From NCBI GenBank assembly GCA_943355005.1, contig CALRDV010000001.1:15410-79409 (forward strand): a stretch of 64,000 nucleotides of DNA, given 5' to 3'. The notes below the pieces were generated by a model, which worked only from the letters and a program-made list of their open reading frames with translations, searched no databases and was not told the DNA's origin. This document shows, one piece after another, positions 354 through 63,751 of the stretch. Within the stretch, counting starts at the first letter, position 1; each line of letters begins with the position of its first letter. The translations under genes and the position numbers were made by a program. Source of the stretch: Patescibacteria group bacterium. GTDB taxonomy: Bacteria > Patescibacteriota > Microgenomatia > UBA1400 > MFAQ01.

Positions 354-364
354 TTAATTCCTTG

Positions 365-390
365 TAGGGGCATTGCGCACAATGCCCCTA
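365..390 (+). other. GC-rich hairpin (11-bp stem TAGGGGCATTG/CAATGCCCCTA) in the dnaK-dnaJ spacer, no U-tract
   Basis: Perfect inverted repeat 365-375/380-390 with a 4-nt loop, directly after the dnaK stop. Confidence 0.5.
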
Positions 391-450
391 CAATAGACAA
401 TATCCTTTGTCTCCCGCCATGGCTGGACCATCTCAATCAAAACAAACACC

Positions 451-1800: not shown

Positions 1801-1991
1801 TGTTTCCTCCGGGAAGCGTTAGATTTGATGTATATTCTACCACACCCAAGCCCAAAAGTCAAACATTATAGGGTTCAGACAGGTTCTTGGGCAAAAGCCA
1901 TAGTTTTGTACTATAATAAGCAAGAATTAGTAAAGTTATTTATGGGCGGCGTAGGTCGTCCTTTTTACTAAATACTATAATTAAAATTATT

Positions 1992-2025
1992 GTCATTCCC
2001 GACCTGATCGGGAATCTATAAAAAT
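1992..2025 (+). repeat. Hairpin repeat GTCATTCCCGACCTGATCGGGAATC + TATAAAAAT box, 13 bp upstream of nusA ATG
   Basis: 8-bp stem ATTCCCGA/TCGGGAAT, loop CCTGA. Same element recurs upstream of rnj, rpoC, rpsG, rplX, adk. Confidence 0.9.
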
Positions 2026-2037
2026 AAGTTCAACAAA

Positions 2038-3243
2038 ATGGATACACAAACCCTTACCGCCCGTACCGAATTTGCCGCTGCTATCAATCAAATCTGCTCC
2101 GAACGTGGCATTTCCCCTGAAATCGTTTTAAACGCTATTAACGGTGCCTTGGTAGCCTCATTCAAGAAGGATTACCCTGAGCAAGCTCTCAAATTTGAGG
2201 AAGAGGAGCTCATTGTCTCCGCCGATGTAGACTCAGAAAACGGTCAATTCCGCCTCTTTGTTGGCAAGGAAGACGCAAAGAAGAAAGATCTGAAGGAAAT
2301 TACCCCTCCAGGATTTGGACGAATCGCCGCCCAAGCCGCCAAGCAAGTCATCCTCCAAACCATCCGCGAAGCCGAGCGTGAGGCTGTTCTCTCTGAATAC
2401 ACCGACCACTTGGGTGAAGTTATGACCGGTATGGTCCAGCGTATGGACGGTCGCAGTGTCGTCATCGATCTTGGCCGTGGTCAAGCAGTCATGCCTCCCG
2501 AAGAGCAAGTTCGCACCGAATTCTATCGTCTTAACTCTCGTGTCAGTGTCTATCTAAAAGAAATTACCGAAACGGTCAAAGGCAAGCAGATTATCTGTTC
2601 CAGAGCCGACGACAGATTACTCGCTGGACTTTTCCAGAGAGAAGTTCCTGAAGTTAGTTCCGGCGCCGTCCTCATCAAAGCCATTGCTCGCGAGCCGGGT
2701 TCCCGCTCAAAAGTTGCCGTTGAGTCCACTCAAGCAGGTGTTGATCCTGTCGGTTCTTGTGTCGGCCAAAAAGGCGTCCGCGTCCAAGCCGTCATCAATG
2801 ATCTAAACAACGAAAAAATCGACATTATTCAATGGTCTGAAGATAAAGATAAATTTATTAAATCTGCCTTAGCTCCCGCAGAAGGACTAAGTATCTCCTT
2901 CGATCGCAGATCCGGCGAAACTACCATTACTGTTCCTGCAGATCAGCTTTCTTTAGCAATTGGCCGAGGTGGTCAAAACGTCAAGCTTGCTGCTAAGCTC
3001 ACAGGCACTAAACTTCGTATTGTTTCCGAACAAGCTTCTCCTGAGTCGGCCATCGTCGTCACAGGCACCGAAGAATACGAAATCGATCAGCTCGACTTGG
3101 AAACCAAAGCCAGAAACACTTTGGTCGAAGCCGGACTCACTCACATTGAAGATCTTACAGAAGAAAAGTTGGACTCGGTCAAAGGCATCGGCCCCAAAAC
3201 TCTTGAGAAAATCAAGATCCAGCTCGCTTCATACAAAAGCTAA
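2038..3243 (+). CDS. nusA: transcription termination/antitermination factor NusA
   Basis: 401 aa, N-terminal NusA domain, S1 and KH regions (…GQKGVRVQAV…), followed by infB. Confidence 0.9.
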   Translation: MDTQTLTARTEFAAAINQICSERGISPEIVLNAINGALVASFKKDYPEQALKFEEEELIVSADVDSENGQFRLFVGKEDAKKKDLKEITPPGFGRIAAQAAKQVILQTIREAEREAVLSEYTDHLGEVMTGMVQRMDGRSVVIDLGRGQAVMPPEEQVRTEFYRLNSRVSVYLKEITETVKGKQIICSRADDRLLAGLFQREVPEVSSGAVLIKAIAREPGSRSKVAVESTQAGVDPVGSCVGQKGVRVQAVINDLNNEKIDIIQWSEDKDKFIKSALAPAEGLSISFDRRSGETTITVPADQLSLAIGRGGQNVKLAAKLTGTKLRIVSEQASPESAIVVTGTEEYEIDQLDLETKARNTLVEAGLTHIEDLTEEKLDSVKGIGPKTLEKIKIQLASYKS

Positions 3244-3252
3244 TTAAATCCT

Positions 3253-4728
3253 ATGTCAGAAAACATTTCGGCCACAAGACCGCCTGTGGTTACTATTCTT
3301 GGGCATGTAGACCATGGCAAGACATCACTTTTGGATCGTATCCGCCACGCTCAAGTAGCCGCCGGTGAAATTGGTGGTATCACTCAAGCCATAGGTGCAT
3401 ATCAAATCGAGCATAAAGGTCAAAAAATTACATTTATTGACACTCCTGGTCATGCCGCTTTTTCTGCCATGCGACGTCGAGGTGGTCAGGCAGCTGATGT
3501 TGCCATTCTTCTTGTCGCCGCCGACGACTCGGTCATGCCCCAAACAATTGAATCCATTGAACATATAAAAGCCGCCGGTATTCCTTTTGTCGTTGCTGTT
3601 AATAAGGTTGATTTGCCTGGGGTAAATCCCGATCGAGTTAAAACGGATTTGGCCAATAATGGCGTCTATGTCGAGGGCTACGGCGGTAATATTCCTTTGA
3701 TAAACATTTCTGCGAAGTCAGGTTCTGGCGTGGATGACCTTCTTGAAATTATTTTACTTTTAGCTGAACTTGAAGAGTTAAAAGATAATTCATCTGAATC
3801 TCCATCAACCGCTCTGGTTATCGAATCTTCCTTACACCCACAAATTGGTCCTCTTGCTACTCTTTTGGTTAAGTCCGGAGTCTTCAAAAAAAACAGCAAC
3901 TTATTTTTTGGAAAAAAAAATATCGGAAAAATTCGTTCCATGATCGATTACACTGGTAAAGCTATTCCTCAAGCCGGTCCATCCACTCCATTCCAGGTGA
4001 TTGGGCTCTCCGATGTTCCTAGTGTGGGAGATATTCTTACCGACATTTCTGTCATCCCGAGCGTAGTCGAGGGATCTCACTCCACCCCGTCATTGCGAGG
4101 AGGCGAAGGCGACGTGGCAATCCAGGATAACTCGGAAGTAACTCCGGGAGTAGTGATTGAGACCAAGCCAATGTCCGAAAGACCAACCATTTTATTAAAA
4201 GCCGACGTCCAAGGTTCTTTGGAAGCTATCTTGGGAGCCATCAAAGATCAAGCCAATATTGTTTACTCTGCAGTCGGAAATATTTCCGACACAGATATTC
4301 AGACAGCTTACGCCGCAGGTGCCGAGATTCTTGGTTTTAATGTCCGCATTTCCAGCTCAGTTACCAAGCTAGCCGAAATTGAAAAGGTTAAATTCACCAA
4401 TTTCCGTATCATCTATCAGCTCTTTGATTATTTAAAGGATCTTCAGGCGAAAAAAACCATTGCCCAAGGTCCAAAAATTATAGAAACCGGTCAAGCTACA
4501 GTTCTTAAAGTATTCAATTTTGGCGGGACAATGGTTTATGGTTGTTTGGTTACTTCGGGCAAAATAAAATTTGGAGACAAAATTCAAAACTCTCGAATTT
4601 CTACCCTAAAAATAAATAAAGCCGATGTTTCCGAAGCCAAAAAGGATCAAGAGTTTGGGGCCACTTTGACACCCTCTATTGACTTTAAGCCCGGTGATAT
4701 AATGACGGCTACTACTATAGAAGCCTAA
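3253..4728 (+). CDS. infB: translation initiation factor IF-2 (short form lacking the N-terminal domains)
   Basis: [17 protein letters not shown]1 motif, DTPGH, NKVD. 491 aa, so the N-terminal region typical of bacterial IF2 is absent. Confidence 0.92.
   Translation: MSENISATRPPVVTILGHVDHGKTSLLDRIRHAQVAAGEIGGITQAIGAYQIEHKGQKITFIDTPGHAAFSAMRRRGGQAADVAILLVAADDSVMPQTIESIEHIKAAGIPFVVAVNKVDLPGVNPDRVKTDLANNGVYVEGYGGNIPLINISAKSGSGVDDLLEIILLLAELEELKDNSSESPSTALVIESSLHPQIGPLATLLVKSGVFKKNSNLFFGKKNIGKIRSMIDYTGKAIPQAGPSTPFQVIGLSDVPSVGDILTDISVIPSVVEGSHSTPSLRGGEGDVAIQDNSEVTPGVVIETKPMSERPTILLKADVQGSLEAILGAIKDQANIVYSAVGNISDTDIQTAYAAGAEILGFNVRISSSVTKLAEIEKVKFTNFRIIYQLFDYLKDLQAKKTIAQGPKIIETGQATVLKVFNFGGTMVYGCLVTSGKIKFGDKIQNSRISTLKINKADVSEAKKDQEFGATLTPSIDFKPGDIMTATTIEA
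4051..4126 (+). repeat. Two adjacent hairpin-repeat elements embedded in-frame in infB (encode SVIPSVVEGSHSTPSLRGGEGDVAIQ)
   Basis: GTCATCCCGAGCGTAGTCGAGGGATCTCACTCC + CCCCGTCATTGCGAGG...GTGGCAATCCAGG. The same modules occur intergenically elsewhere. The insertion lies in the IF2 linker preceding the conserved ILLKADVQGS. Confidence 0.8.
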
Positions 4729-4730
4729 CT

Positions 4731-5696
4731 ATGGACGATCAAAATCAATTTTCCTCATCCAAAAAACTGATCCAGTCAGCCAGCTCGTTAATTGTTGCTC
4801 TTCCGCCGGATCCTTCTTCTGATATTGTTTCTGCTGGACTAAGTCTTCATCTTTCTTTTATCGCTTCAGGTAAGAAATCTCAAATCGGCTGCGGTACTCA
4901 AGTTCATGTCGATCCTAAACTGGTCGGAGCTCAGGAGATTGCTGATAGTATCGGAGCCAAAAATCTAGTCATTTCCTTTGATTATCACGAAGATGATTTG
5001 GAAAAAGTGGACTACGATGTCCGCCCCGATGGTAAGTTCTATCTTATGATCAAGCCAAAAGCCGGTGCCCCCACCCCTGATGTCAGCAACGTCAAATATT
5101 CCTACTCCGGCGCCTCAGCAGACCTGGTCATAACTCTAGGCATTAATTCTCTTGAAGAACTCGGCAAGATTTATGCCGATGAAAAAAACTTCTTAGATGA
5201 AGCCAAAATCCTTAGTTTAAATATCACTCCTAGGCCGGTGCAATTCACCAAAAATCTCCTTCATCAGTCAGCCAATTCTTTTTCCGAGCTGGTTTCCGAA
5301 CTCGTTGAGAAAACAGAGCTGAAAATTTCCGGAGATTCAGCCAAAAATCTACTTAGCTCTATTTACGAAGAAACCAAAAGTTTGACCAGTCCAAAGATGA
5401 CCGCTAACACTTTTTCTTCCATTTCCTTCCTTATGAGGAATGGAGCCAGGCTTCCAAATCAGCAAGCCTTTGTTCCTAGATTTTCCCAACCAACTTTCTT
5501 TGAAGCCCCTCACGCCCCCTCTGTCATTCCGACCGAAGTGGAGGAATCTCAAACCACCAACATAAGTGACGACGACAACGTTCCCATGCCCCAGGAGGAG
5601 AACAAGCCCTACGTCATTCCTCCATCGAACCTGCCAAACCAGAACGTCCCAAATGACTGGACCAAGCCCAAAATCTTCCGCGCTGGCGACCTCTAA
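4731..5696 (+). CDS. hypothetical protein, possibly degenerate DHH/NrnA-like phosphoesterase (catalytic DHH motif not conserved)
   Basis: N-terminal LIVALPPDPSSDIVSAGL resembles DHH motif I (hxxPDxDxxGS). Later DLVITLG and LMIKPKAG sit where DHH would be. Pro-rich C-terminus. Occupies the rbfA/nrnA slot after infB. Confidence 0.35.
   Translation: MDDQNQFSSSKKLIQSASSLIVALPPDPSSDIVSAGLSLHLSFIASGKKSQIGCGTQVHVDPKLVGAQEIADSIGAKNLVISFDYHEDDLEKVDYDVRPDGKFYLMIKPKAGAPTPDVSNVKYSYSGASADLVITLGINSLEELGKIYADEKNFLDEAKILSLNITPRPVQFTKNLLHQSANSFSELVSELVEKTELKISGDSAKNLLSSIYEETKSLTSPKMTANTFSSISFLMRNGARLPNQQAFVPRFSQPTFFEAPHAPSVIPTEVEESQTTNISDDDNVPMPQEENKPYVIPPSNLPNQNVPNDWTKPKIFRAGDL
5523..5550 (+). repeat. Hairpin repeat (GTCATTCCGACCGAAGTGGAGGAATCTC) in-frame inside CDS 4731-5696 (encodes VIPTEVEES)
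   Basis: Same family termini GTCATTCC...GGAATC. Read in the same frame (GTC ATT CCG = VIP) as the infB copy. Confidence 0.7.
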
Positions 5697-5713: not shown

Positions 5714-6703
5714 ATGCCATTTACAGAACCTGTTCCATCTACAGAAATACCAGCAGACGATTCTCTAGAAATTCTCCATGAAAGAGGTAGTCTAGATGAA
5801 CGCAAGATAGTATTCAACGGTTTTGGTTCTCTGGATGCTCCATTTCATGGACTACCTAAAACAGAAAGATTGGAAGTAACTCTTGCCGCAAATGCAATCG
5901 TAGAGCTAGCTACATTTTTTACTGAAAAATCCTTTGAGGTTACCCCTGCCATGATTATGTCCAGAAATACACTTCCTTCAGGCGAGGTGGAAAACTGGGA
6001 CAGTTTGACCAAACAACTTGAGACTATAGATCCCCAGAAACGTGTAATTCCTGAAATTGTAGCTTCGATGAAGAGCAAGATGGCACAACTGTTATCCTCC
6101 CAGCCAGCCACCAGTGGAAGTGAAATTTCTAAGCTATTGATGGATAGGGATAAGATTGTAGAGACCCAGAGGACATCTTCTGTTATTACTCCGGATATGT
6201 GTCGTTTGGTAGGTGATACTATGGCTCTAATCACCTTTGGGCGTTTACCTCAAGAAAGTCTAAGAGATATCATACAATCAGATTCTCCAAAAGATTCTGA
6301 AGAACAAATACTTGAGATTATGGACATCATTGAAAATGTCAACTTTGAGGATTCAAATGAAGTTTATTTGAAATTATTAATAAACGGTCGCTTGCCAAAA
6401 ACCTTAAAATCTATTCAAGAAAGTGCAGATTCTGTTGACTTAAACACAACGCCGGACTTTCGTGCTGCCTCCTGGTTTCTCGCCGAAGTAAGGCTAAAAT
6501 ACAAAGATAAACAGTTTACCCCGAAGCAGTGGTCGGATTATCTAGGTGAGGTAAATAAGGCCGTTATGGATGCCAGATTAGCCCGCATGAGTAAGCCATT
6601 AATTATTTGCGGTGATGTTTCACAAAAAATGAGTCTAGACGAGGGATATGCCTTCTTAATGGCCAACTATCTCTATGGCAAAGAGCAAAAACTAGTTAAT
6701 TAG
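5714..6703 (+). CDS. hypothetical protein (329 aa) occupying the truB/ribF position before rpsO
   Basis: Clean ORF. Only weak local resemblance (GFGSLDAPFHGL) to the TruB GHxGTLDPxAxG motif. Not a confident assignment. Confidence 0.5.
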   Translation: MPFTEPVPSTEIPADDSLEILHERGSLDERKIVFNGFGSLDAPFHGLPKTERLEVTLAANAIVELATFFTEKSFEVTPAMIMSRNTLPSGEVENWDSLTKQLETIDPQKRVIPEIVASMKSKMAQLLSSQPATSGSEISKLLMDRDKIVETQRTSSVITPDMCRLVGDTMALITFGRLPQESLRDIIQSDSPKDSEEQILEIMDIIENVNFEDSNEVYLKLLINGRLPKTLKSIQESADSVDLNTTPDFRAASWFLAEVRLKYKDKQFTPKQWSDYLGEVNKAVMDARLARMSKPLIICGDVSQKMSLDEGYAFLMANYLYGKEQKLVN

Positions 6704-11398: not shown

Positions 11399-11414
11399 TT
11401 TCCTAACCACGAAT

Positions 11415-11447: not shown

Positions 11448-12845
11448 CTAAATACTCTCCAAGAACTCCAACATTTTTCTCTCCAGAACTTCAGCTCGCT
11501 TTTTATTCTTGCCAAAAATGATGTAAGACAAATATCCATCATGGAGCAGATTGGAAGAACAAATTACCAGACCTTCTCTTGTCTTTCTCGAGAACAATAT
11601 TGGCTCCATTAGCTTATGTAGTTTTTTGAAAGTCGTATTCTTCTTATTCGGCAAGGTATGCATGTTCTCACAAAGAACATACGACTTCTTAGTAAAATCT
11701 CTTCCGGCCAGCTCAATCGCCGCGTTATACATATGCGTTCCGCCTGTTACACGGACATTGGACTCATTTACAAATATCTCTCCATTTTTTCCGGCAATGT
11801 AATCAATATCAAAATATCCCCGGTAACCATCTGCCGAATACTGTTCGCCGATTAAATACCCAATATCTGTAATTCTTGAAGCTACTCTCTTTGGTAGAGT
11901 TTCTTCTCCTATCTCTATTCCGGCAAAAACTCCCTGCCTGTCTACTCTCATTCCACAGTAATACAAGAATTTTACTTCGCCATTTTTCTTAATCATGAAC
12001 TCGGAGTTTGGAAAGCCACCTCCGATTCTTGGATTCGGCTGAACCAGTGACTCAACCACAATCGGAAATTTTTCCCAATATGCATCTCTGCGTAATATCT
12101 CAATTATTTTTTTCTCGCACTCGGCAAACTTTTTTGGCAGCTCGCCCTTTCTGAATATTAGAACTCCTGCTCCTGAATGCCCTTTGTTTGTCTTGATTAC
12201 CACTCCACCTTCCTTGATATATTTATTGGCAGCTATGCCGGCAGTATCGATAATTCCGGAACTGATGACTCCGTTTGGCATTTTCATATCAGACCTCATT
12301 GCTCCATTTATCTGAGTTAGTTGTCTGATCCCCGACTTACTCCCGTAAAAATTTACCGTCCAAGCATCGGACTCTTCCGGCGCCAAAGGTGTCCGCACCT
12401 CCACTCCCTTATCTCTAAGTGTCTTGATTAGGTACAAGAATTCCGGCGAGGTTGAATAGGAAGTAATCGAAAGTCTTTTGTATTTTTTCTTCATCCCCAC
12501 CAGTTTCGCCATAATATCCTCATCTTCCAAAATATCTTCACATAGTTTTCCGGTGTGGTTCTTGGTCACAAAGATTTCCAAGTCTCGGACTTCACAGAGC
12601 TTCTTGAAATATTCCACGAAGAGGGGATCGATGGGTTTGGGGGCAATGAAAGTAAATTCAAACTCTTCCGCCATGGAGAACAAATCTTTGTCGGTCAGAT
12701 TAGCATTCTCATCTATCTCCCATTTTTGCAGTTTCTTGTCTCCGTAAGCTTCGATAAAAGGCCACACATCCTCCGAACAGTTAAATATTCGGATTACTCT
12801 TTCTCTCTTCTTTCCTCCAGGCTTATCAGTTTTTATGTTTTTCAT
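11448..12845 (-). CDS. ATP-grasp superfamily ligase with ~190-aa N-terminal Rossmann-like pre-ATP-grasp region
   Basis: C-terminal half: GGVVIKTNKGHSGAGV (ATP-binding Lys), ...GYFDIDYI...VNESNVRVTGGTH (Mg-binding E/N). Confidence 0.6.
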   Translation of the reverse strand: MKNIKTDKPGGKKRERVIRIFNCSEDVWPFIEAYGDKKLQKWEIDENANLTDKDLFSMAEEFEFTFIAPKPIDPLFVEYFKKLCEVRDLEIFVTKNHTGKLCEDILEDEDIMAKLVGMKKKYKRLSITSYSTSPEFLYLIKTLRDKGVEVRTPLAPEESDAWTVNFYGSKSGIRQLTQINGAMRSDMKMPNGVISSGIIDTAGIAANKYIKEGGVVIKTNKGHSGAGVLIFRKGELPKKFAECEKKIIEILRRDAYWEKFPIVVESLVQPNPRIGGGFPNSEFMIKKNGEVKFLYYCGMRVDRQGVFAGIEIGEETLPKRVASRITDIGYLIGEQYSADGYRGYFDIDYIAGKNGEIFVNESNVRVTGGTHMYNAAIELAGRDFTKKSYVLCENMHTLPNKKNTTFKKLHKLMEPILFSRKTREGLVICSSNLLHDGYLSYIIFGKNKKRAEVLERKMLEFLESI

Positions 12846-12853
12846 TTTATCTT

Positions 12854-16542: not shown

Positions 16543-16695
16543 CATGCTATAATTACCACCAGTCCACGGAATCGTTGTCCAGTGATATGAGAGTTTATAT
16601 AGAATCAGTTAGATTTTAACCTCCAGTCAGAGAAACTTTACCCGTAAATTAGGATTTTGGCGCCTTTCCTCGCCCAAACTGAATAAGACAATCAT

Positions 16696-16729
16696 GTCAT
16701 TCCCGACCTGATCGGGAATCTATAAAAAT
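16696..16729 (+). repeat. Hairpin repeat GTCATTCCCGACCTGATCGGGAATC + TATAAAAAT, ~60 bp upstream of rnj
   Basis: Identical core. Confidence 0.9.
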
Positions 16730-16788
16730 AGTTACTGTTGATTCTCATTCAGTTACAATATTATTAGGAAAATTAATTACAAAAAATT

Positions 16789-18728: not shown

Positions 18729-18732
18729 TGGT

Positions 18733-18760
18733 GTCATTCCGGACCTGATCCGGAATCCAG
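18733..18760 (+). repeat. Hairpin repeat variant GTCATTCCGGACCTGATCCGGAATCCAG
   Basis: Stem ATTCCGGA/TCCGGAAT (compensatory). Confidence 0.85.
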
Positions 18761-18762
18761 TA

Positions 18763-19023
18763 CTACATAAATTCAGATAAATCATCCCATTCTGGATTCA
18801 TCTTTTCAATTGCATCTAGCTTCCATTTTCTCTTCCAATTCTTCAATTGTTTTTCTCTCGCAATTGCCTCCATTGCTGATTCATACTCCTCAAAATATAC
18901 CAAGTCGTGTACAGAATATCTTTTAGTAAAACCATCAACGATATCAGACTTATGTATGGAAATTCTAGTAGCTAAGTTATATGTAACTCCCACATAAAGT
19001 GTTCCATTTCTATGATTCGTCAA
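18763..19023 (-). CDS. GIY-YIG nuclease-domain protein. The annotated start is TTG; the conserved KKYFVYILTN N-terminus lies in-frame upstream (to 19053) with no ATG/GTG
   Basis: ...NGTLYVGVTYNLATRISIHKS...REKQLKNWKRKWK. The upstream in-frame codons encode DINTKKYFVYI. Either a nonstandard start or a decaying gene. Confidence 0.6.
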   Translation of the reverse strand: MTNHRNGTLYVGVTYNLATRISIHKSDIVDGFTKRYSVHDLVYFEEYESAMEAIAREKQLKNWKRKWKLDAIEKMNPEWDDLSEFM

Positions 19024-19064
19024 TATGTATACAAAATATTTCTTCGTGTTTATATCTTATTATT

Positions 19065-19340
19065 TTTTCTGGATTCCGGGTCAAGCCCGGAATGACAATT
19101 AGAATTTGTTTGTTCAAAATATTACCCGTCATGCCGGACCTGATCCGGCATCCAGTAGTTTAAGTATTCAATACGAACTTACGTTTTCTGGATTCCGGGT
19201 CAAGCCCGGTATGACAATTAGAATTTGTTTGTTCAAAATATTACCCGTCATGCCGGACCTGATCCGGCATCCAGTAGGTTAAGTATTCAATACTAACTTA
19301 CGTTTTCTGGATTCCGGGTCAAGCCCGGAATGACAATGAG
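19065..19340. mobile_element. MITE-like composite element, 119-bp unit tandemly repeated 2.3 times
   Basis: Each unit holds CTGGATTCCGGGTCAAGCCCGGAATGAC ... GTCATGCCGGACCTGATCCGGCATCCAG, i.e. 28-bp imperfect terminal inverted repeats that are themselves members of the hairpin family. Units are ~97% identical (period 19065/19184/19303). Confidence 0.8.
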
Positions 19341-22157: not shown

Positions 22158-22460
22158 ATGACCCTTCCTCAAATTATTTCCATGATTTCTACCATTCTTC
22201 TGACCTCAGTTGCTTTCATCATTGGAATCCAGCTAATTTACATTCTTAAAGAAATAAAATACTCCCTAACTAAAGTTAACCAAACCATCGACACCGTCTC
22301 CGACACTGTCGAGAAGATTTCCCAGCCTGCCATTGGCTTCTTCGCAATCCTAGAAGGATTTAAAGAGAGTGGCAAAATTATCGACGCCATTTCTGGATTA
22401 CTAGGCAAAGACAAACCAAAACCACCGGTCGATATCGACGCATATGACAACTCCATCTGA
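22158..22460 (+). CDS. small membrane protein (TM + coiled region)
   Basis: 100 aa, N-terminal TM. Confidence 0.45.
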   Translation: MTLPQIISMISTILLTSVAFIIGIQLIYILKEIKYSLTKVNQTIDTVSDTVEKISQPAIGFFAILEGFKESGKIIDAISGLLGKDKPKPPVDIDAYDNSI

Positions 22461-22836
22461 TAAACCAAAGCAAGACGGTTCTTTTTCTTCCTTTACTGTG
22501 GGAGTAGCTCTTGGTGTCATGGGAGCCTTACTCTTTGGCACTGAGGAGGGTCGCAGCATCGTCAAAAAAGTCATCAGCGCCGTACCGGAGAAGTATAAAC
22601 GCCCCATTCCCACTTCCCTTCGCAATTTAGTCAACCCTCCCACACCGTCATTGCGAGGTACTCCGTGGCAATCTAGCTTATCAACCACCCCCGTCATCCC
22701 CACAGAAGAAACTCAGCACCACACCACTTTCGCATACAGCAGTCCCTTTGGCGAAGCAATCGCTGGCGAAGCTCCGCCTCCTCCTGCTCCCCACGTCCGG
22801 CCCACCCTCTCCGAACCCTTCCACCCGAATTCCTAA
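22444..22836 (+). CDS. YtxH/DUF948-like membrane protein with Pro-rich tail containing an in-frame hairpin repeat
   Basis: FTVGVALGVMGALLFGTEEGRSIVKK resembles the YtxH motif. The tail carries PSLRGTPWQSSL, encoded by a repeat element. Confidence 0.45.
   Translation: MTTPSDKPKQDGSFSSFTVGVALGVMGALLFGTEEGRSIVKKVISAVPEKYKRPIPTSLRNLVNPPTPSLRGTPWQSSLSTTPVIPTEETQHHTTFAYSSPFGEAIAGEAPPPPAPHVRPTLSEPFHPNS
22647..22677 (+). repeat. Hairpin repeat GTCATTGCGAGGTACTCCGTGGCAATCTAGC inside CDS 22444-22836
   Basis: Encodes PSLRG..., the same peptide as the infB-embedded copy (TPSLRGGEG). Confidence 0.75.
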
Positions 22837-22841
22837 TAATC

Positions 22842-22903
22842 GTCATTCCGACCGAACGAAGTGAGTGGAGAAATCTCCCTCCACCCGTCATTGCGGGGTT
22901 TGG
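22842..22903 (+). repeat. Two adjacent hairpin-family elements (GTCATTCCGACCGAACGAAGTGAGTGGAGAAATCTCCCTCC; CCGTCATTGCGGGG...)
   Basis: Shared modules CTCCCTCCACCC + CGTCATTGCG seen at 4078, 43815, 44706. Confidence 0.75.
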
Positions 22904-30000: not shown

Positions 30001-30016
30001 TATTTTATATCACTCG

Positions 30017-30116
30017 TCATTGCGAGCGGTAGCGTGGCAATCCAGGTATTGTCATTCCCGACCTGATCGGGAATCCATCCCCTCCAGTCATTCGAGCGGT
30101 AGCGTGGCAATCTACC
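30017..30116 (+). repeat. Cluster of three hairpin-family elements (GTCATTGCGAGCGGTAGCGTGGCAATCCAG / GTCATTCCCGACCTGATCGGGAATC / GTCATTCGAGCGGTAGCGTGGCAATCTACC)
   Basis: Between divergent genes. Copies a and c are ~90% identical. Confidence 0.9.
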
Positions 30117-30122
30117 TGCGAC

Positions 30123-35628: not shown

Positions 35629-35642
35629 TCATATTAACCACT

Positions 35643-35667
35643 GTCATTCCCGACCTGATCGGGAACC
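35643..35667 (+). repeat. Hairpin repeat GTCATTCCCGACCTGATCGGGAACC + TATACAAAT, 28 bp upstream of rpoC
   Basis: Same family. Confidence 0.9.
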
Positions 35668-35695
35668 TATACAAATAACCTAACAACACCCAAAC

Positions 35696-39845: not shown

Positions 39846-39865
39846 AGAAAAAAACAACCTAACAT

Positions 39866-39899
39866 GTCATTCCCGACCTGATCGGGAATCCATAAAAAT
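39866..39899 (+). repeat. Hairpin repeat GTCATTCCCGACCTGATCGGGAATC + CATAAAAAT, between rpsL and rpsG
   Basis: Same family. Confidence 0.9.
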
Positions 39900-39907
39900 A
39901 AAACAAT

Positions 39908-43765: not shown

Positions 43766-43771
43766 TCATCT

Positions 43772-43804
43772 GTCATTGCGAGCGCTGCGCGGCAATCTAC
43801 CTGC
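43772..43804 (+). repeat. Hairpin repeat GTCATTGCGAGCGCTGCGCGGCAATCTACCTGC
   Basis: Same GTCATTGCGAG...GGCAATCTACCTGC family as 30017/30087. Confidence 0.85.
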
Positions 43805-44648: not shown

Positions 44649-44671
44649 CTTTAGCCTCGCCTTCACCATCC

Positions 44672-44713
44672 GTCATTGCGAATCTCGTACTCGAGCTGTG
44701 GCAATCTCACTCC
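44672..44713 (+). repeat. Hairpin repeat GTCATTGCGAATCTCGTACTCGAGCTGTGGCAATCTCACTCC
   Basis: Near-identical to the 62948 copy. Contains the nested palindrome CTCGtaCTCGAG. Confidence 0.85.
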
Positions 44714-44716
44714 ACC

Positions 44717-53920: not shown

Positions 53921-53930
53921 CAACAACCTT

Positions 53931-53964
53931 GTCATTCCCGACCTGATCGGGAATCTATATAAAT
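53931..53964 (+). repeat. Hairpin repeat GTCATTCCCGACCTGATCGGGAATC + TATATAAAT inside the spc operon, 20 bp upstream of rplX
   Basis: Identical core. Confidence 0.9.
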
Positions 53965-53974
53965 AAAAAAGACC

Positions 53975-62188: not shown

Positions 62189-62193
62189 CTTTC

Positions 62194-62226
62194 GTCATTC
62201 CGACCGTAGTGGAGGAATCTCACTCC
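62194..62226 (+). repeat. Hairpin repeat GTCATTCCGACCGTAGTGGAGGAATCTCACTCC right after the secY stop
   Basis: Same as the 5523 and 22842 copies. Confidence 0.85.
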
Positions 62227-62249
62227 AAATATTAAAATTTTAATTAAGT

Positions 62250-62283
62250 GTCATTCCCGACCTGATCGGGAATCTATATAAAT
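62250..62283 (+). repeat. Hairpin repeat GTCATTCCCGACCTGATCGGGAATC + TATATAAAT, 10 bp upstream of adk
   Basis: Identical core. Confidence 0.9.
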
Positions 62284-62292
62284 TAATTCACT

Positions 62293-62862
62293 ATGAACAT
62301 AATCATTCTCGGACCCCAAGGGTCAGGCAAAGGCACACAGGCAAAGTTATTAGCCGAAAAATACGGCTTAACGAATATTTCTTCAGGTAAACTCCTCCGT
62401 GAATTTGCCAAAGGCGACTCTGAGAAAGCCAAGCTGATTGCCGATCTTCTCACTACCGGGGCACTTCTTCCTTTCGACACTGTCATGGAAGTCATTGAAC
62501 CCGCTATGGTTGGATCCAAATCTGGCTTTATTCTGGACGGTAGTCCAAGAGATCTTATGCAAGCCGAATATCTTGATTGGTTTTTGGGCGAGCGCCACAT
62601 TACTATTGATAAAGTCATTCATATCGATATTCCTCGTGAGGAAAGTTTAAATCGGCTGGCCAAAAGAGCCATCACTGAAAATCGTTCCGACGATACCCCG
62701 GATGCTATTCACGAAAGATTGGATATTTACGAGAAAGATACTATGCCTGTCATAGACTACTATCGCAAGCAAGGCAAAATGATCGATGTCGACGGCGTTG
62801 GTGAAGTCCCAGAGATTTTTAACGCCATCATCTCCAAGCTCGAAGTGTCATCCCGAGCGTAG
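62293..62862 (+). CDS. adk: adenylate kinase. Last five codons and stop (VSSRA*) are supplied by a hairpin repeat
   Basis: IIILGPQGSGKGTQAK P-loop. No zinc-lid Cys. Element GTCATCCCGAGCGTAG overlaps 62847-62862. Confidence 0.93.
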   Translation: MNIIILGPQGSGKGTQAKLLAEKYGLTNISSGKLLREFAKGDSEKAKLIADLLTTGALLPFDTVMEVIEPAMVGSKSGFILDGSPRDLMQAEYLDWFLGERHITIDKVIHIDIPREESLNRLAKRAITENRSDDTPDAIHERLDIYEKDTMPVIDYYRKQGKMIDVDGVGEVPEIFNAIISKLEVSSRA

Positions 62863-62980
62863 TTCCATAGATACCCCGAAGAGGGTACGAGGGATCTCAC
62901 GCTATTGTCATTCCGGGCTTGACCCGGAATCCAGTCATTAATTATCCGTCATTGCGAATGTACTCATGTGGCAATCTAGG
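62847..62980 (+). repeat. Three contiguous hairpin-family elements (62847-62902, 62907-62934, 62948-62980)
   Basis: GTCATCCCGAGCGTAG...GGGATCTCACGC; GTCATTCCGGGCTTGACCCGGAATCCAG; GTCATTGCGAATGTACTCATGTGGCAATCTAGG. Confidence 0.9.
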
Positions 62981-63004
62981 CAATTTAAGCATAAAATATC
63001 GTCA

Positions 63005-63751
63005 ATGACAAAACTTCAAGCCATGACCGAAGGCGGTGCCCGTTTGGGGTGGATCAAAGGCCAGTTGGAAAAAATGGTTCAGGCCGGAGTTACTCCCTTG
63101 GAAATTGACGCCGAATGTTTCCGATTAATTAAAGAAGGCGGAGACAAGCCTAATTTCTCTATGGAGCCGGGCTATAAACACTCGACTTGTATAAATGTAA
63201 ACGAAGGTATGGTTCACGGCATCCCGGGTAAAACCCCCTTCAAAAAAGGCGACGTCGTCAAGGTCGATCTAGGTCTCATGCACGAAGGTTTTCACTTGGA
63301 CTCTTCTATTACCGTCGCAATCCCACCCGTTAAACCTGAAGTAGCCAGATTCCTCGAAGTCAGCCAACGCTCCCTCGCCGCCGCCATTTTTATGGCGAAC
63401 CCTGGGAACACCGTCTATGACCTTGGTCTAGCTATGCAGACCGTTGTCGAAGCTGAAGGCTACAATGTGGTCCGCGATCTCACCGGCCACGGCATCGGCC
63501 GCAAGCTTCACATGGAGCCATATATTCCTTGTTTTGCGGATAAATCAAGCAAAAAGGATATCTTAGCTGTCGATCAAACCGTAGCTATCGAAGCCATGGT
63601 CTCCATGGGCGATTATCATCTAGTCGAAGACACCGATGGCTGGACGCTCTCTACCCAAGACGGTTCTATCACCGCCATGTACGAGGAAACCGTCTATATC
63701 ACCGCCCAAGGCCCCAAAATCCTCACAGCCACAAATAAAAGAAAGTTATAG
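63005..63751 (+). CDS. map: type I methionine aminopeptidase
   Basis: ...DVVKVDLG...HGIGRKLHMEP..., Asp/His/Glu metal-ligand positions present. Start at ATG 63005 (the ORF-track extension runs through a repeat element). Confidence 0.88.
   Translation: MTKLQAMTEGGARLGWIKGQLEKMVQAGVTPLEIDAECFRLIKEGGDKPNFSMEPGYKHSTCINVNEGMVHGIPGKTPFKKGDVVKVDLGLMHEGFHLDSSITVAIPPVKPEVARFLEVSQRSLAAAIFMANPGNTVYDLGLAMQTVVEAEGYNVVRDLTGHGIGRKLHMEPYIPCFADKSSKKDILAVDQTVAIEAMVSMGDYHLVEDTDGWTLSTQDGSITAMYEETVYITAQGPKILTATNKRKL

Follow-up and report, generated by a model that had tools for sequence, protein, structure and literature searches.

In a 64,000-nucleotide (nt) stretch of the metagenome-assembled genome (MAG) contig CALRDV010000001.1 (positions 15,410 to 79,409 of the forward strand, assembly GCA_943355005.1; hereafter the window, whose own numbering is used throughout), which derives from Candidatus Collierbacteria (Microgenomates, Candidate Phyla Radiation, CPR), we found protein-coding genes that carry short palindromic repeats in frame. 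We consider it likely that the segment in infB, the gene for translation initiation factor 2 (IF2), represents a head-to-tail pair of CGTC-tagged repetitive extragenic palindromes (REPs) of NTS/SRM-like kind in the IF2 linker, with an SsnA-type partner nuclease encoded at 18763-19053, mobilisation of the units via nicking and inserts that are functionally neutral. Judged by their sequence, the window repeats belong to the CGTC-REP and NTS-SRM-Ssn kind, the superfamily to which the Rickettsia palindromic elements (RPEs) RPE-4 and RPE-6 are assigned, because they share its anatomy and because an SsnA homolog occurs in the canonical repeat-flanked arrangement. The first-pass annotation had taken them for an independent system analogous to RPEs, a view that agrees neither with their anatomy, which is that of CGTC REPs, a superfamily including RPE-4 and RPE-6 (PMC3733652), nor with the SsnA homolog (PMC11893778); the shared superfamily makes the RPE precedent a relative and not a mere analogue.

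The repeat family in the window

The elements constitute a CGTC-tagged REP family with about 30 copies in 64 kb, a number that includes degenerate copies counted by eye, 27 of them on the + strand and three on the - strand. Since the literal SRM pattern gave no match in the window, we adopted a generic tag-and-arm signature with simulated controls (GTC, a 5-nt arm, 3-50 nt, the reverse-complement arm and C), which returned 29 matches against 1.9 expected and a maximum of 6 in 100 simulated sequences; in addition, the 36-nt type A unit occurs in seven copies at ≤2 mismatches (0 expected). Four types (A-D) can be distinguished, across which the tag, an AT-initiated stem and the C after the stem are invariant, with stems opening and closing with AT in every unit. 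The tag reads CGTC or TGTC in 29 of the ~30 units, and a degenerate type D copy at 30086 begins with AGTC.

Types A (TGTCATTCCCGACCTGATCGGGAATC with the AT-rich tail TATAWAAATAA) and B (TGTCATTCCGGGCTTGACCCGGAATCCAG) have an 8-bp stem and a 5-nt loop, while types C (TGTCATCCCGAGCGTAGTCGAGGGATC with the tail TCACTCCACC) and D (CGTCATTGCGAGG..GTGGCAATCCAGG; in infB in full CGTCATTGCGAGGAGGCGAAGGCGACGTGGCAATCCAGG), which are the intragenic types, have a closing stem of only 5 bp, AT-initiated, around an interior of 12-40 nt. The hairpin nature originally ascribed to all copies holds for the intergenic types A and B, which are predicted to form strong hairpins as single-stranded DNA (ssDNA) relative to shuffled sequences (z -4.5 and -4.0, respectively), and does not extend to the intragenic types C and D. 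The 3' ends are ..ATCCAG(G) in types B and D, ATC(T/C)AT in type A and ATCTCAC in type C, and compensatory stem variants are present (CCCGA/TCGGG, CCGGG/CCCGG, ATGCC/GGCAT). Head-to-tail neighbours occur as C-D pairs, in infB and at 22841/22886, and as triplets, at 30015-30117 and at 62846-62980. Two further candidates were rejected as repeat units, namely 9402, whose closing arm is missing, and 5613, which is conserved in three of four orthologs compared (absent in the related contig L004).

A repeat pair in the interdomain linker of IF2

Within infB (3253-4728), a type C unit at 4050-4086 (+ strand) is read as (S)VIPSVVEGSHST, IF2 residues 267-278, and a type D unit follows directly, head-to-tail, at 4088-4126 (+ strand), read as PSLRGGEGDVAIQ. 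Together the pair accounts in frame for IF2 residues 267-292, VIPSVVEGSHSTPSLRGGEGDVAIQ, and the reading frame runs on past the insert into conserved IF2 domains; the predicted insert peptides of the linker are VIPSVVEGSHSTPSLR and GGEGDVAIQDNSEVTPGVVIETK. Among 120 orthologs, this linker, located between IF2 domain II and C1 (PF11987), is constant at 25 amino acids (aa) across the wider Microgenomates and varies from 24 to 49 aa within the Collierbacteria clade; in the window protein it is 49 aa long. In an AlphaFold2 model of IF2, residues 264-311 are without secondary structure and the predicted local distance difference test score (pLDDT) is below 50 at 269-306; according to this model the insert sits in a disordered interdomain linker. 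The first-pass annotation had likewise placed the extra residues in linker regions.

The type C unit was found in none of the other IF2 orthologs (n=120), and the closest ortholog, on contig L002 (83% identity by BLASTP, 86% in the MAFFT alignment), has neither the C nor the D unit, while contig L005 has a near-identical type D unit at the same linker site. L002 and a further contig, L008, both from assembly GCA_964348455.1, are syntenic with the window and encode proteins 83-87% identical to its own; their record label 'uncultured Pseudomonadales bacterium' is probably wrong. Repeat-derived linker peptides occur in other close relatives as well, comprising type D (n=5), VGAGLIPP (n=6), VGAIHESP (n=8) and VGADPRVRP (n=1), the last three being of GTAG type, for which the DNA of L003 and L006 confirms GTAG-tagged hairpins. 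On a neighbour-joining tree calculated with the linker left out, these linker states are scattered over sister taxa, indicating that turnover at this site is fast and recurrent.

Further intragenic copies

Translations confirmed in-frame repeats not only in infB, but also in the gene 3' of it and in the small open reading frame (ORF) 22444-22836; the labels 'NrnA-like' and 'YtxH-like' that had been attached in the first-pass annotation found no Pfam support. In the gene 3' of infB (4731-5696), the copy previously placed at 5523 is an in-frame type C unit at 5522-5558 (+ strand), read as SVIPTEVEESQTT in a C-terminal low-complexity tail. This unit is common to the window and L002 and absent in L003 and L004, and L005 has other units in the same tail. 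Window positions 5518-5560 and L002 positions 12173-12215, which span exactly the type C unit, are identical at 43/43 nt, in a gene that shows 76% identity overall and 49% at third codon positions. Simple within-genome homogenisation was rejected as an explanation, since the paralogous type C copies differ from the 5522 unit in both genomes; the 43-nt identity is explicable by constraint on the nucleotide sequence, by a recent exchange or by a second insertion at this site. In L005, the gene after infB contains at 11731-11960 a type B/C composite (YVIPGLP..AVEGSPSTP) and a type D unit (SSFRGGTPTWQSHS). ORFs 4731-5696 and 5714-6703, which occupy the infB-rpsO interval, the usual place of rbfA/truB-type genes, gave no Pfam match at E<=0.01.

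The gene of a small membrane-anchored protein (22444-22836) contains a type D unit at 22646-22677 (+ strand), read as PSLRGTPWQSS, which is absent from the closest orthologs (P0242-P0244), while distant orthologs show independent SLRGGTPTWQS insertions at at least three other positions. This copy had been thought to encode the same peptide as that in infB; the two have only PSLRG in common and diverge thereafter because their interiors differ in length. A supposed second copy at 22693 is not a repeat, as its motif PVIPTEETQHH lacks a closing arm and is invariant in 18/18 orthologs, and is thus ancestral.

A long type C unit at 62846-62902 (+ strand) lies over the 3' end of adk (62293-62862) and, as suspected from the first reading, supplies the end of the gene, with the last five codons and the stop (VSSRA and the TAG at 62860-62862) giving a C-terminus ..KLE-VSSRA*. 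A query of the genome collection with Adk returned one close relative only, L008, from the same MAG as L002, where Adk ends with KLEQE* on its own stop and a different set of repeats lies downstream in the adk-map spacer. In the relative L006, grpE ends inside a type D unit at 2753-2791, read in the VIAR phase. Overall, ortholog alignments place all four insertions (infB, 5522, 22646 and adk) in disordered linkers or tails and show them to be lineage-specific and absent from close orthologs, which supports the original view that the extra segments are frame-keeping insertions of a dispersed repeat.

Reading frame, selection and orientation

The gene order in the window is dnaK-dnaJ-nusA-infB-...-pnp, followed by rpoBC and the ribosomal protein operon-secY-adk-map; 65 of the 72 long ORFs lie on the + strand, and ORFs make up ~93% of the window. 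Against this background only ~5 of the ~30 units are inside genes (P ~7e-21 for 5/27), so that the units are strongly depleted from coding DNA. In types A and B, one sense phase is interrupted by a TGA; in type A, the tail contributes two further stops in another phase, so that only phase 1 remains open, and no A or B copy was seen inside a gene in the window. Type C is open in two sense phases and type D in at least two (all three in 3/4 tabulated copies), and adk reads type C in the TAG-containing phase and terminates there. Insertion followed by selection, with survivors that are stop-free in disordered linkers and tails, is the simplest reading of this pattern.

The claim that the intragenic copies share one reading frame stood for the Collierbacteria cases, with about ten instances of the SLRG reading of type D, and did not hold elsewhere. 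A metagenome scan for the type D unit yielded at least 120 contigs, among which five Pfam-verified proteins carry an in-frame D unit, namely a LysRS-B3/4 fusion, Mfd, a Mur ligase, the C-terminal tail of SecA and RNase HII (contigs L065, L103, L133, L053 and L111, all low-GC metagenome), four of them in the VIAR phase and one in the SLRG phase. A universal preference for one frame was rejected, as type D phases are distributed 13/12/12 in metagenome ORFs above ~120 codons, a count in which many ORFs are spurious and the high-GC ones are without Pfam match.

Units at 11414 and 12853 keep the + orientation inside a minus-strand gene block, and the only minus-strand units flank the minus-strand ssn-like gene described below. 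Orientation thus tracks the DNA strand and not transcription, which is compatible with a replication-linked process acting on ssDNA, the numbers being small. Independently of the repeats, the GC skew of the + strand is negative over all 64 kb despite the 65/72 ORFs located there, including the ribosomal protein and rpoBC operons, contrary to the G-rich leading strand that is usually seen. Scans of the whole window with Rfam (gathering thresholds) and for tRNAs gave no match.

An ssn-like gene embedded between repeats

At 18763-19053 on the - strand, the window encodes a 96-aa single-domain GIY-YIG protein (Pfam PF01541, E=5.8e-14) that shows 52% identity to the 94-aa SsnA ortholog of N. gonorrhoeae (BLASTP, E=3e-31). 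The reference was a tblastn match on a gonococcal chromosome filed among plasmids and was taken as SsnA from its 94-aa length, the residues Y6/Y17/E64 and 16 NTS copies in 3.3 kb. Its E-value lies below the limit applied to Ssn homologs (blastp E<1e-10, together with CDD cd10448; PMC11893778). FVY, LYVG and REKQLK are kept in the alignment, and with them the two GIY-YIG tyrosines and the glutamate. Homologs typically measure 94-98 aa and occur in many phyla, while searches of PDB and NCBIfam with the product gave weak matches only (PDB UPF0213 family, E=0.03).

Repeats border the gene on both sides, with a unit at 18732 and, opposite, array units at 19069-19335. The ssn orthologs of L023 and L024 are likewise repeat-flanked, making three out of three Collierbacteria loci examined, and that of L024 lies in the same rnj-ftsK neighborhood. 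In L004, rnj adjoins ftsK with no ssn at that site, and no true unit was found in 21 kb.

The first catalytic tyrosine is encoded upstream of the first canonical start codon; no ATG, GTG or TTG precedes the GIY tyrosine, and the only in-frame candidate is an ATA at 19053-19051. The equivalent start is ATT in the L024 ortholog (2960-3261) and GTG in L023, with the codons conserved, which suggests from sequence comparison that ssn uses a near-cognate start, and such a start may keep the level of the nuclease low. Because no canonical start precedes the GIY tyrosine, gene callers truncate ssn products to 76-86 aa.

Intergenic units and the ssn-ftsK array

Type A units are all intergenic, with one at 1991-2027 (+ strand) and further copies starting at 12853, 16695, 30050, 35642, 39865, 53930 and 62249. 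Among those at 1991-2027, 16695-16731, 35642-35678, 39865-39901, 53930-53966 and 62249-62285, five of six have their end at a distance of 18-29 nt from the following start codon (nusA, rpoC, adk and others), and the type A unit before rnj lies 69 nt upstream. Type A units may supply leader or promoter sequence; a function as sigma-70 promoter found no support, as the TTGTCA-to-TATAAA spacing is 21 nt and a promoter scan found nothing. Intergenic type B units are located at 62906-62935 (+ strand) and start at 11414 and 23044, and intergenic type C units at 62193-62227 (+ strand, between secY and adk) and at 22841-22886. Type D is represented by a unit upstream of map (62947-62980, + strand) and by further intergenic copies at 30015-30046, 30086-30117, 43771-43800 and 44671-44716 and a truncated one at 22886. 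The mechanically called ORF of map opens at an ATG at 62966 inside the type D unit (62947-63010 region). Comparison with L008 indicates that the true start is the ATG near 63006, in which case the type D unit would give a false N-terminal extension in annotations.

A type B' unit lies directly downstream of ssn (18732-18760, + strand), and between ssn and ftsK an array at 19060-19340 consists of 119-bp tandem units of head-to-head B/B'' pairs, with type B members on the - strand (19069-19097, 19188-19216, 19307-19335) and type B'' members, which have the compensatory stem change ATGCC/GGCAT, on the + strand (19127-19155, 19246-19274). Orthologous intergenic sites such as the adk-map spacer hold different unit types in the window and in L008. 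In addition, the dnaK-dnaJ spacer contains at 364-391 a perfect GTAG-tagged palindrome, GTAGGGGCATTGCGCACAATGCCCCTAC, the sole one in the window and a member of the other REP superfamily.

Relation to known repeat systems

As defined by Di Nocera et al. 2013 (PMC3733652), CGTC-tagged REPs have an unpaired CGTC/TGTC tag, with variants including TGTC and CCTC, then an 8-9 bp stem that opens with A-T and T-A pairs and encloses a 4-5-nt loop, and lastly a CCA-like tail. Head-to-head dimers are common among them, most copies are intergenic and some lie inside ORFs, and no dedicated transposase has been found for them; the 2013 survey comprised Proteobacteria, Chlorobi, Bacteroidetes, Spirochaetes and Thermotogae, and identified Neisseria CGTC-1 with dRS3, R. 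conorii CGTC-1 with RPE-6 and CGTC-4 with RPE-4 (PMC3733652). In the window we likewise found a 5' tag, a 3' CCA-like tail and many dispersed copies, about 25 of the ~30 being intergenic, with head-to-head dimers, and the copies in ORFs add ~10-30 residues, supply stops or lie at ORF ends. The published stem and loop lengths fit types A and B with their 8-bp stem from AT and 5-nt loop, whereas types C and D, with a closing stem of 5 bp only, fall outside the four described stem/loop formats, and the phylum is an addition to those surveyed. It is through the assignment made by Di Nocera et al. 2013 (PMC3733652) that the units connect to RPE-4 and RPE-6.

The dRS3 element was later extended to the 28-nt NTS, consensus CGTCATTCCCGCGMAVGCGGGAATCYRG (Chenal et al. 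2025, PMC11893778). SsnA, a 94-aa GIY-YIG protein (cd10448), binds the forward strand in single-stranded form and cleaves it a few nt upstream; cleavage depends critically on the three bases that precede the palindrome and binding on the C that follows it, and the SsnA gene typically lies between NTS copies (PMC11893778). The window units share the outline CGTCATTCC..GGAATCC(A/G)G, with an invariant GTC before and an invariant C after the AT-initiated palindrome, so that the positions critical for SsnA cleavage and binding coincide with the invariant positions, and NTS and type B differ only in stem interior and loop. Shared as well are the small single-domain GIY-YIG partner (96 vs 94 aa), its gene embedded between repeats, and clusters or arrays. 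In contrast to the NTS/SRM-Ssn system, the host here belongs to the CPR, a group unmentioned in PMC11893778, the units deviate in stem interior and 5-nt loop, and the window has the long-interior types C and D, a strong single-strand orientation bias, a non-canonical ssn start and in-frame intragenic copies, a topic absent from that study.

GTAG REPs of the REPIN-RAYT kind are also short, tagged, dispersed hairpins that form dimers and are occasionally intragenic, and sister Collierbacteria have such repeats (VGAGLIPP, VGAIHESP) in the same IF2 linker, whereas the intragenic units of the window are CGTC/TGTC-tagged and no RAYT was seen. RPEs were reportedly described by Ogata et al. in 2000, and RPE-1 of Rickettsia, with its Wolbachia counterpart WPE, is an in-frame palindromic element of 100-150 bp in obligate intracellular hosts for which we know of no partner nuclease. 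As in RPEs, the window has palindromic repeats in frame in protein genes and absent from orthologs, and the likeness to RPE-1/WPE extends to selfish palindromic DNA tolerated in essential genes at surface or linker positions; RPE-1 and WPE differ in being much longer, of other sequence and in obligate intracellular hosts.

Discussion

The reading we favor combines nicking of CGTC-REP units with purging of harmful insertions. Units would form hairpins when the + strand is single-stranded; by analogy with Neisseria, Ssn would bind these hairpins and nick a few bases 5' of the tag, and repair, recombination or template switching at the nicks would then copy units elsewhere, preferentially beside resident units. 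Copying next to existing units would explain both the clusters and the repeated insertions in one linker, and the head-to-tail neighbours and differing types at orthologous sites fit insertion beside resident units, a step that we infer. Most genic insertions would be lethal and purged, and the survivors would be those on the sense strand, of the stop-free subtypes C and D in a stop-free phase, at sites where the protein tolerates 10-25 extra hydrophilic residues or an altered C-terminus. The added residues are probably translated, without consequence for function.

Several points weigh against this reading. We know of no repeat-copying or repeat-inserting activity of GIY-YIG/Ssn enzymes, and the mobilisation step is purely inferred. 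The 5522 unit is perfectly conserved over 43 nt, a hint of some function of the nucleotide sequence that is not predicted for a neutral passenger, and types C and D fold as ssDNA no better than shuffled sequences (z +1.2 to -0.4). The strand-bias argument consists of just two units in a minus-strand gene block, and ssn, without a canonical start before its catalytic tyrosine, may be weakly expressed or inactive. Furthermore, the literal SRM pattern HGTCWYN(0-2)YYVSBRHN(0-5)WNVSBRGN(0-2)RNCYNB (Chenal et al.) has 0 matches in the window, the mismatch being located in the stem interior, while the tag, the AT start and the trailing C fit.

In a variant of this scheme, which we regard as unlikely, the intragenic copies would be more than inert passengers: the IF2 linker and similar tails would serve as landing pads that repeatedly gain units of different families via Ssn-dependent nicking beside residents, and the residents would be held at the nucleotide level, as the 43/43 identity, set against 49% at synonymous positions, suggests. 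If this were true, Collierbacteria would offer a natural before/after allele series for how CGTC REPs move, and Ssn sites in essential genes might limit allelic replacement by incoming ssDNA.

The same 43/43 identity amid third codon positions at 49% could be read at the level of RNA, with units that are mainly transcribed elements (mRNA stabilisers, processing or pausing sites, promoter or leader modules) and intragenic copies kept for their own RNA or DNA use, e.g., interdomain pausing in IF2. Nearly all copies are co-oriented with genes (65/72 ORFs on the + strand), many REPs have been argued to be transcribed (Di Nocera et al., PMC3733652), and type A has a conserved AT-rich tail and lies mostly 18-29 nt before start codons. 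We nevertheless judge this quite unlikely, as the units at 11414 and 12853 keep the + orientation in a minus-strand gene block, types C and D show no significant fold, the window has no Rfam family match, the type A spacing is unfit for a sigma-70 promoter, SsnA binds no RNA (PMC11893778), and the presence of unrelated repeat types in the IF2 linker of close relatives speaks against one specific RNA function there.

A very improbable alternative casts the units as miniature transposons that depend for their movement on a transposase gene at another location (RAYT/IS200-IS605-type Y1 or IS110/Piv-type), with the GIY-YIG gene as passenger or controller. The GTAG-type, RAYT-associated REPs in the same IF2 linker of close relatives, the one GTAG palindrome in the window (364-391), a strand-biased orientation typical of ssDNA transposition and the comparison of the Ssn system with insertion sequences made by its own authors (PMC11893778) would fit; the window units, however, are CGTC-tagged and not GTAG-tagged, CGTC REPs are without dedicated transposase (PMC3733652), and no transposase domain was found in the scanned window ORFs or in the gene tables of L001-L006, a negative that for this genome covers 64 kb plus flanks.

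That the segments are ancestral low-complexity linker residues resembling repeats by chance, or assembly or sequencing artefacts, is scarcely credible: hypervariable linkers leave exact insertion boundaries and target duplications undefinable, and in some orthologs a D unit lies within an IF2 linker of normal length (27-28 aa), but the intragenic DNA equals intergenic copies over 26-40 nt with tag and tail included, the closest orthologs are without units, an identical IF2 protein is present in the NCBI and ENA collections on a contig of up to 326 kb, an independent MAG has the same unit at 5522, the frames continue into conserved domains, and the truly ancestral 22693 motif is easily told apart.

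Taken together, the in-frame CGTC REPs of Collierbacteria add a further bacterial group to those known for this phenomenon and do not constitute a new system; in-frame intragenic copies of the CGTC superfamily were already described in 2013 (PMC3733652). As far as our literature searches reach, the occurrence in a CPR host is new, as are types C and D, with their long interiors and their tolerance in genes, the hot-spot in the IF2 linker where CGTC and GTAG families switch, the conserved intragenic copy and the non-canonical ssn start. CGTC-tagged, NTS-like repeats and an Ssn-type nuclease are thereby placed in CPR bacteria with tiny, otherwise streamlined genomes, where peptides of repeat origin are tolerated in essential genes of translation, nucleotide and envelope functions. 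In annotations, odd peptides of CPR proteins such as VIPSxVEGSH or SLRGGTPTWQS, protein N- or C-termini that look 'extended', and a large number of tiny hypothetical ORFs are by-products of these repeats. Moreover, an IF2 linker whose repeat type changes rapidly among close relatives provides a compact system for studying repeat movement and the role of Ssn outside Neisseria.

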